DNA of 64,000 nt from Octopus vulgaris (Eukaryota). This document shows, in pieces, positions 59,173 to 61,448 of the stretch. The translations under genes and the position numbers were made by a program. Location of the stretch: positions 130,820,001 through 130,884,000 of the forward strand of contig OX597819.1 of assembly GCA_951406725.2 (NCBI GenBank), written 5' to 3'. Position 1 is the stretch's first letter, and each line of letters opens with the position of its first letter. Below the pieces are notes generated by a model. That model was not told where the DNA came from and searched no databases. It was given only the letters and a program-made list of their open reading frames with translations.

Positions 59173-59797
59173 ATATATATATATATATATATATATATAT
59201 ATATATATATATATATATATATATATATATATATACAGATATATATATACAGATATACATTCAACAATATAGGACATTCGACTCACTAGAAAGAGCAGCC
59301 AAAACTCATACCGCTAAGTAGTTGTAATTCTGAAATAGAAAGAGAAATAAAAACGTTTACCCCTTTCATCTCTGTTTCAAAATTAGCCCAAAAATCATTA
59401 ATTAATAAATATAAGGGTAGCAAAAATTCTAGAAAATTCTCTGTATATATAAATATATACAGATATATATATATATATATATATATATATATATATATAT
59501 ATATATATATATATATATATATATATATATATAGCAATTAAGGACAACTACTTAATAAGGAAAACTTAACAAGAAATTGTCAGGTAGATAGCGTGAAAAC
59601 CTCATAAGAGAAAAAATTTCGAAAATAATTATTTCTTATTGAACATATTAATTTATATATAGAGGGCATTATACATACATGCCAGATGGCATTATACATA
59701 CATGCCACACGCTAAGAGGGACAATTAGTCATTTCTACCAAAAATATTACTAATCCCACCGAATGCAATTTTTCAAAGTAAGACATTTAAAAAATAT

Positions 59798-59845
59798 AGA
59801 CCTGTATCACCGTGATTTCATACTTACGTATTCATCAGCAGGCCT
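59798..59845 (-). ncRNA. mirror copy of the hammerhead at 60579-60626
   Basis: Reverse complement of 60579-60626. Confidence 0.9.
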
Positions 59846-60578
59846 GGATGTATCATAGATAAACGACCCTGCCTCGCTTAAGCCGATCAGCTAACTGATC
59901 AACATCAACGAAGCACATGGGTGAGTTTACATATATTACATCCTGAAAATGTCAGACTTTTACGAATTGCATTTCGGAAAAGGAAAAGTTTTTTCGGAAT
60001 AAAAATTTAGCAATTAAGGACAACTACTTAATAAGGAAAACTTAACAAGAAATTGTCAGGTAGATAGCGTGAAAACCTCATAAGAGAAAAAATTTCGAAA
60101 ATAATTATTTCTTATTGAACATATTAATTTATATATAGAGGGCATTATACATACATGCAAGATGTCTTACTTTGAAAAATTGCATTCGGTGGGATTAGTA
60201 ATATTTTTGGTAGAAATGACTAATTGTCCCTCTTAGCGTGTGGCATGTATGTATAATGCCATCTGGCATGTATGTATAATGCCCTCTATATATAAATTAA
60301 TATGTTCAATAAGAAATAATTATTTTCGAAATTTTTTCTCTTATGAGGTTTTCACGCTATCTACCTGACAATTTCTTGTTAAGTTTTCCTTATTAAGTAG
60401 TTGTCCTTAATTGCTAAATTTTTATTCCGAAAAAACTTTTCCTTTCCCGAAATGCAATTCGTAAAAGTCTGACATTTACAGGATGTAATATATGTAAACT
60501 CACCCATGTGCTTCGTTGATGTTGATCAGTTAGCTGATCGGCTTAAGCGAGGCAGGGTCGTTTATCTATGATACATCC

Positions 60579-60626
60579 AGGCCTGCTGATGAATACGTAA
60601 GTATGAAATCACGGTGATACAGGTCT
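60579..60626 (+). ncRNA. type I hammerhead ribozyme, canonical core
   Basis: AGGCCTG-CTGATGA-ATACgtaaGTAT-GAAA-TCACgGTGA-TA-CAGGTCT. Confidence 0.9.
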
Positions 60627-61448
60627 ATATTTTTTAAATGTCTTACTTTGAAAAATTGCATTCGGTGGGATTAGTAATATTTTTGGTAGAAATGACTAAT
60701 TGTCCCTCTTAGCGTGTGGCATGTATGTATAATGCCATCTGGCATGTATGTATAATGCCCCTATATATAAATATATATATATATATATATATATATATAT
60801 ATATATATATATATATATATATATATATATATATATATATATATATATATATATATATATATATATATATATATATATATATATATATATATATATATAC
60901 ACAGATATATTATACAGATATATATACAGATATATATACAGATATATATATATATATATATATATATATATATATATATACAAACGTATATATATATATA
61001 CAGATGTATATATATATATATATATATATAGATATATATATATATATATATATATATATATACATGTATATATACAGGTGTATATGTATACATGCATATG
61101 TATAGCTGTATATGTAGAGATGTATTTCTATAGAAATGCATGTATGTCTAGACGTATATATATATAGATGTACATGTAATATGTACACATATATATACAC
61201 ATATATATACACATATATATATGCATACATATATACACCCATACACACATAAACCCCCGTTATGATACATATATTGCTGAGCGAAGGTGACGGGTGGAAA
61301 ACTCGGGTTGGCGATTTCTGAAGTTTTGGTTTCTTCTATAAGCCATCACTGAGTTCTCGTTTCTATTTGCTCTTCCCTGTCTGTAACAGGAATGCTGTTT
61401 GGTATACAATACAATTGACATGGAAAGGTTAGACAAATACTATTACCA

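Follow-up and report, generated by a model that had tools for sequence, protein, structure and literature searches.

How do two copies of a short ribozyme-bearing sequence, each longer than its own repeat unit, come to lie head-to-head inside a (TA)n array, and which template and which enzyme put them there? The question is raised by an insertion in a 64,000-nt stretch of the Octopus vulgaris genome (assembly GCA_951406725.2, contig OX597819.1, positions 130,820,001 to 130,884,000 of the forward strand), which is called the window here. Its features are listed in window positions; in the unit coordinates, u1 is the first base 3' of the predicted cleavage.

59444..59533, no strand: (TA)n target array, left side
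59532..60164, minus strand: left arm, covering 1.3 laps of the 476-nt unit from u117-123 (5' end) to the fixed, tailed 3' end at site B (~u273)
59532..59650, minus strand: tail of ~120 nt (u155-u273) between the two fixed 3' ends, on the left-arm end only
59798..59845, minus strand: type I hammerhead of the left arm (pattern scan), predicted cleavage 59805/59804
60162..60164: head-to-head (5'-5') junction with 3-nt microhomology
60162..60772, plus strand: right arm, covering 1.28 laps from u19 (5' end) to the fixed, untailed 3' end at site A (~u154)
60241..60287, plus strand: 23-nt internal tandem duplication just upstream of site A, with a mirror copy at 59661-59707
60284..60759, plus strand: single natural lap of the 476-nt unit; its circular fold lies far below shuffles
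60579..60626, plus strand: type I hammerhead of the right arm (pattern scan), predicted cleavage 60619/60620
60762..61235, no strand: (TA)n target array, right side

The two arms match as reverse complements at about 99%, and each runs back into its own sequence with a period of 476 nt. They enter and leave the unit at different points, the right arm running from u19 through one lap to ~u154 and the left arm from u117-123 through one lap to ~u273, and both predicted RNA 3' ends point outward into the flanking (TA)n arrays. The arms differ at 2 sites and have in common a private substitution (u423), which is present in every covering lap of both; a single substituted base at 60159 lies beside the microhomology at the centre of the insertion. 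The unit has a GC content of 33%, no reading frame longer than about 48 codons was found inside the element, and a pattern scan with all stems gave exactly two hammerhead matches in the whole window, one per arm. This confirms the description of the locus in an earlier sequence-only reading. Because there is one hammerhead per arm, the window copy has no complete hammerhead-to-hammerhead lap, and it should not give rise to further circles. Site A (60762-60772 and 60286-60297) is a TATA-box-like run, also seen in a sister family, which could double as an internal promoter. Left of the insertion, a short frame with a GDFN motif (59038-59170, minus strand), presumably a LINE endonuclease fragment, is broken by the (TA)n array. 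A cluster at 61449-61521, 62897-62969, 63375-63447 and 63904-63976 comprises four tRNA-Phe(GAA) genes, one of them degenerate, whose flanks are similar.

The predicted hammerhead consists of a 7-bp stem I, the conserved core, a 4-bp stem II with a tetraloop and a short, near-palindromic stem III. An Rfam search over 57-64 kb of the window, the hammerhead model search that had been proposed as a check, returned no hammerhead family match at E<=1. On its own, the motif is no more stable than shuffled sequence (z -0.7 to -1.7), and in its minimum-energy fold, which is not the active form, the core is mispaired. The full 476-nt lap, folded as a circle, reaches -139.9 kcal/mol (z about -10.8 against 25 shuffles). 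Furthermore, the motif has a counterpart in the older sister family, which is 70-78% identical to the 476-nt unit (L203-L222, L063:2830-3165 and L053:3660-3765; 1644 candidates; period ~497 nt at L216). There the core and stem III are kept, while stems I and II are rewritten yet still paired and stem II is longer; a hammerhead match was obtained in 7 of 20 loci. Adjoining a 476 copy, a further element in inverted repeat form was seen, whose hammerhead-like core has a long stem II (L052:6323-6888, L006:552-1320).

The 476-nt family is a young, dispersed, non-coding hammerhead repeat. The search of the 2.8-Gb genome yielded 1441 candidates for the unit, 40 of which were scored, and exact patterns of the hammerhead core gave 7 and 107 genome matches. 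We analysed 69 insertions, i.e. the 40 scored candidates, 28 from 100 listed pattern matches and one adjoining another; arm lengths are biased in this sample, as 40 of the 69 loci were chosen for near-full-length matches. One locus, L016, is a duplicate of L006 at a distance of 80 kb and not independent; it is single-armed and stands outside the counts of end sites. Two arms were found in 51 of the 69 loci, head-to-head in all 51. The outer ends, corresponding to the RNA 3' ends, fall on two fixed sites about 120 nt apart, A (last G/C at u143, end at ~u154) and B (last G/C at u271). The two-arm loci combine A with B in 37 cases by strict and 42 by loose assignment, B with B in one and A with A in none, and have an off-site end in 8, which gives p about 1e-10 for this one-of-each rule against free choice of the site. 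The flanks are the (TA)n target, with the exception of a few off-site ends that lie without (TA)n. The window copy is an ordinary B+A family member.

This rule corrects the sequence-only reading, in which the two strands of the cut had been primed at different AT-rich points met by chance; instead, there are two fixed sites, one per arm. The same reading had named fixed ends shared among copies as grounds for abandoning its model, and had suggested plotting all copies on a circular map of the unit. On such a map the outer ends indeed coincide at A and B, and the inner ends are spread. Fixed outer ends are the known tail signature of Penelope-like elements (PLEs), which leaves the model intact. 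The inner (5') ends scatter round the 476-nt unit, with 5 of 120 near the cleavage site against 3.8 expected and thus no pile-up there. The claim that each cDNA ran for more than one lap holds for the window and fails as a rule, since only at 9 of 42 loci are both arms longer than one lap. The longest arms reach 4.3 laps, and a complete hammerhead-to-hammerhead lap is present in 23 of the 69 loci.

The same insertion pattern in (TA)n is found in a second family, whose 353-nt unit is unrelated to the 476-nt unit and has its own canonical hammerhead. Of 2552 candidates, 40 were scored, and 39 loci were analysed (L164-L202). Two arms are present in 28 of them, 25 with one end at each of the sites A' and B', 3 with an off-site end and none with the same site twice; the tail measures about 45 nt. 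Moreover, in two autonomous Neptune-type PLE families the ends in (TA)n lie at two sites roughly 35 nt from each other, and each of the 7 inverted insertions seen has a tailed end and an untailed one. Young intact Neptune-type ORFs of 781 and 784 codons are present in the genome. In one young Neptune-type PLE with a 4713-bp unit (L089:468-4171, L086-L103), a 479-codon ORF1 and the RT-EN frame of 781 codons overlap at a T6A run in 10 of the 11 copies listed, a likely place for -1 frameshifting; for PLEs, the legend of Fig. 1 in PMC8557442 mentions an ORF1 that is frameshifted. The hammerhead of this element has a U3-A8 variant of the core.

Such recurrence bears on the most trivial explanation, namely that the inverted arms arose at the DNA level, from a satellite-like tandem inverted by recombination, or are a collapsed palindrome of the assembly. 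Long palindromes are indeed error-prone, and deletions within an arm occur at the 353 locus L197. However, 51 independent loci on many chromosomes have their own junctions and the same two outer ends, the autonomous PLEs show an identical signature, and the window arms differ at their two sites while having their private variant in common. We consider an origin of this kind hardly credible.

The search for a partner among the PLEs gave no end with clear homology to the 476-nt unit. A BLAST of the unit against PLE ends in 50 GIY-YIG loci and 20 further ones, from families sampled via PF01541, found no match, and the best alignment of the 476-nt unit with a PLE end (z=7.3 among 48 tests) is AT-rich and out of register. 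Similarities at the PLE loci L063, L093 and L095, which were considered as unit-related ends, turned out to be sister repeats nested in neighbouring (TA)n, at L093 probably so; a 353 copy beside the PLE locus L240 is a tail-to-tail neighbour and not a chimera; and a third hammerhead of the G-loop type, which lies 2.9 kb away from a tandem pair and looked like a full PLE, proved to be a second chimeric insertion. Copies that continue into a PLE ORF, the other observation that had been named as contrary to the model, were not seen: no such ORF was among the top matches listed for the 10 odd or single 476 ends examined. A truncated autonomous PLE with an ordinary pLTR was rejected, since multi-lap arms close on themselves and no continuation into an RT-EN ORF was seen at these 10 ends.

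How the two arms were made and joined can be read from their inner ends. The joins between arms have mostly 0-5 nt of overlap. In 14 of 42 loci, including the window, the arms are mutually non-nested, and in the other 28 one is nested in the other. These 14 loci support independent priming of the arms, in agreement with the sequence-only reading. Arm lengths are uncorrelated (rho -0.19, p=0.23, 42 loci) and the offset between inner ends is not constant (Rayleigh p about 0.1), which gives no support to a pair of RTs advancing in lockstep.

Chimeric insertions support a separate joining step as well. At 47.71 Mb of C17 (G000; L223:4020-6599), the tailed RT-EN arm of a Neptune-type PLE lies head-to-head with 1.9 laps of the 353-nt unit, and both ends are in (TA)n. 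At 70.54 Mb of C1 (G000; L051:1207-5072), two 476/353 chimeras are found 1.4 kb apart, with 353 segments at L051:2056-3264 and 5044-5072. Their 476 arms, one A-ended and one B-ended, have a common haplotype, including a variant absent from the lineage's three other members. The polarity of the TA arrays across this locus (16:6, 2:29, 1:14 and 21:0) is flipped in the middle segment, whereas it is unchanged at 4 of 4 ordinary loci, a control of four loci only. In the simplest reading of this one case, which we infer from the arrays and the haplotype, two insertions took place simultaneously and their four cDNAs were cross-joined, with inversion of the middle. Together with the microhomology at the window centre, the chimeras point to the central joining of two cDNAs that had been proposed for the window. 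They also demonstrate that different RNAs can meet, which counts against a strict one-template reading.

Instead of two primings, a self-priming or fold-back process could have generated one arm from the RNA and the other by copying it, or from an antisense template after hairpin formation, as was proposed for head-to-head PLE ends in rotifers (PMC3846280). This would account directly for the private variants shared by the arms, and it fits the 28 loci with nested arms and a few long palindromic centres. Nevertheless, the 14 loci in which each arm outreaches the other exclude it as a general rule. The inner ends are not significantly close (11 of 42 within 40 nt, permutation p=0.11), and the fixed second end and the cross-family chimeras would be left unexplained. 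Therefore, we regard it as very improbable as the general mechanism, and it may apply to a minority of loci.

The nature of the template was addressed by comparing laps and arms within and between loci. Arm pieces scoring below 150 were excluded, as were 8 and 25 columns at the arm ends, and the homopolymer-edge columns u17 and u303 were dropped to give a set of 20 polymorphic columns. In these, the discordance within an arm, from lap to lap, is 19 of 709 comparisons, and that of opposite arms 14 of 808, compared with 35792 of 139467 between loci; the overall divergence is 0.9% from lap to lap, 0.7% from arm to arm and 2.0% between loci. Of the locus-private substitutions, 127 fall on sites covered more than once; of these, 18 are present in every lap, 3 in some laps and 106 in one lap, the last being later mutation or error. 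In long arms, the derived variants of the lineage occur in every lap. The cleavage bond itself is crossed without an indel in all 125 cases; 20 of these crossings have an indel a few bases downstream of the bond, mostly an inherited 2-nt deletion.

The 353-nt family behaves in the same way at its polymorphic columns (discordance 26/641 between laps, 25/459 between arms and 10994/47885 between loci). Its arms of up to 6 laps keep their derived variants in every lap, and none of 116 cleavage-site crossings has an indel within 5 nt. Over all columns, its arms differ by 1.1% and its loci by 1.2%, mainly because of a few poorly aligned arms, and mixed haplotypes were found in 3 of the 39 loci (L165, L166 and L167).

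One haplotype per insertion and the absence of scars imply that each insertion went through a single monomer sequence, which was then re-expanded. A ligated circle would be a natural route to such scar-free re-expansion, and the evidence favours the circular or circle-equivalent template of the sequence-only reading. End-to-end jumps on a cleaved linear monomer would be expected to leave run-offs or added bases, as with R2 and retroplasmid RTs. A single haplotype would also result if one source locus were expressed per cell and several of its RNA molecules were used. A search for parent-daughter pairs found none with a hammerhead-to-hammerhead bottleneck. Contigs of 4 sequencing runs, 3 of them presumed RNA, span the unit with its end joined to its start, a structure common to circle and tandem and to RNA and DNA; in run X1, 0 of 8 contigs leave the unit for other sequence, which again looks alike for circle and tandem.

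The most serious competitor is a linear template, in which an uncleaved transcript of more than unit length, or a multimeric one, underwent the same twin priming by a PLE and the extra laps came from homology-guided template jumps, either between terminal redundancies or between sister RNAs, with no covalent circle involved. Homologous jumps would be likewise seamless, the mosaic laps and the cross-family chimeras prove that switching occurs, and the anole PLE needs no hammerhead cleavage in vitro, unprocessed RNA being its dominant substrate and main template (PMC11167929, in the available text). However, the derived variants are fixed through all 4-6 laps of the long arms, and the divergence between laps and between arms stays well under that between loci. 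Furthermore, no lap-specific variant was seen to be inherited by a sister insertion, and the hammerhead of the sister family is kept with rewritten, paired stems. Hence, a linear template appears unlikely to us.

The best explanation, and probably the correct one, is that a Neptune-type PLE protein cut the (TA)n array and reverse-transcribed one circular RNA twice. Copies with two hammerheads would be transcribed, and their RNA would cleave itself and be circularised by ligation. The PLE RT-endonuclease, probably acting as a dimer, would then prime from both DNA ends at the internal sites A and B, the RT would run round the circle over variable lengths, and the two cDNAs would finally be joined 5'-to-5' by separate end-joining. 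This sequence of steps would bring together what is seen in the loci: the (TA)n target, two fixed 3' ends and scattered 5' ends, microhomology joins, seamless multi-lap arms and one haplotype. A more specific version, in which a dimeric Neptune-type RT-endonuclease copies one ribozyme-made circle from the two fixed sites at once and a promiscuous, separate end-joining follows, is put forward tentatively, as plausible and still somewhat doubtful.

If this specific version is true, a single rule would cover retrozyme arrays as well as the PLE tail, partial tandems and inverted pLTRs, and simultaneous insertions would give rise to chimeric elements and to small inversions in chromosomes. The questions addressed are how tandem, inverted and tailed PLE insertions originate, whether hammerhead-made circles serve as template and which enzyme moves animal retrozymes. 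The small ORF-less unit permits whole insertions to be read lap by lap. In this way, the 476 family makes a long-proposed circle mechanism into a set of sharp, testable predictions, and the 476-nt and 353-nt RNAs with their mapped start sites, together with the intact Neptune-type ORFs, are ready assay material. For genome engineers, too, an RT with the ability to roll round small circles and insert them at (TA)n would be of interest.

The non-LTR retrozyme class, the insertion architecture and the circle hypothesis are already published. Circles were proposed as templates of more-than-unit cDNA in 2014 (PMC4209133) and for retrozymes by Cervera and de la Peña (2020, PMC7229834), who showed retrozyme circles in coral, mussel and axolotl and named PLEs as candidate drivers. 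The published link between retrozymes and PLEs rests on co-occurrence, pLTR similarity and hypothesis, most recently in a survey of 35 genomes, with no mollusc among them according to its available text (Li, Clavereau and Pollet, 2026, bioRxiv 10.64898/2026.07.22.740005). Our literature search found no cephalopod retrozyme and no lap-by-lap analysis, and the family may be catalogued in Repbase or Dfam, which lay outside this search. Nor did it find a count behind a one-of-each end rule, evidence from single haplotypes and seamless junctions, or chimeras of a retrozyme with a PLE. As far as this search reaches, it is the genomic evidence that is new, and not the architecture or the idea of a circle.

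In comparison with metazoan non-LTR retrozymes, the 476-nt unit is likewise small, low in GC and ORF-less, with a canonical type I hammerhead, head-to-tail laps, a strongly self-paired circular fold and PLEs as the proposed mobiliser. Its length exceeds the 170-400 nt of the invertebrate retrozymes of 2020 and lies inside the 51-972 bp of the 2026 survey. Circles were shown for retrozymes of coral, mussel and axolotl, whereas that of the 476-nt unit is predicted. Unlike the non-LTR retrozymes in the available text of these two sources (PMC7229834; 2026 preprint), its copies are dispersed two-arm insertions with the full PLE signature.

A pair of inverted pLTRs that face each other head-to-head, one of the two being tailed, is a standard PLE arrangement (PMC3846280, PMC8557442). 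The anole PLE, for which a dimer is predicted, cleaves and extends either strand in vitro from two internal sites that define the tail; a point against our reading is that its start sites are reported not to differ between the strands (Frangieh et al., 2024, PMC11167929). As in EN+ Neptune-type PLEs (Arkhipova et al., 2013, PMC3846280; Craig et al., 2021, PMC8557442; PMC11167929), the 476 insertions have partial tandems, an inverted 5'-truncated copy placed head-to-head, a tail at one end, a (TA)n target, two internal RT starts and a hammerhead upstream of the 3' ends. Unlike these elements as described there, the 476-nt unit has no ORF, its tail measures about 120 nt versus 30-40, its hammerhead is canonical versus minimal, and the whole unit closes on itself over several laps. 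Non-autonomous PLEs of Chlamys such as MRC1 generally have a common 3' sequence with their autonomous family, whereas none was found for the 476-nt unit, and their clade is described as being without canonical hammerheads (PMC8557442, in the available text). Judged by its insertions, the 476 element works like a non-autonomous Neptune-type PLE, and its family shows every retrozyme feature that sequence can reveal, which is consistent with the retrozyme-like parasite of a PLE that had been suspected in the window.
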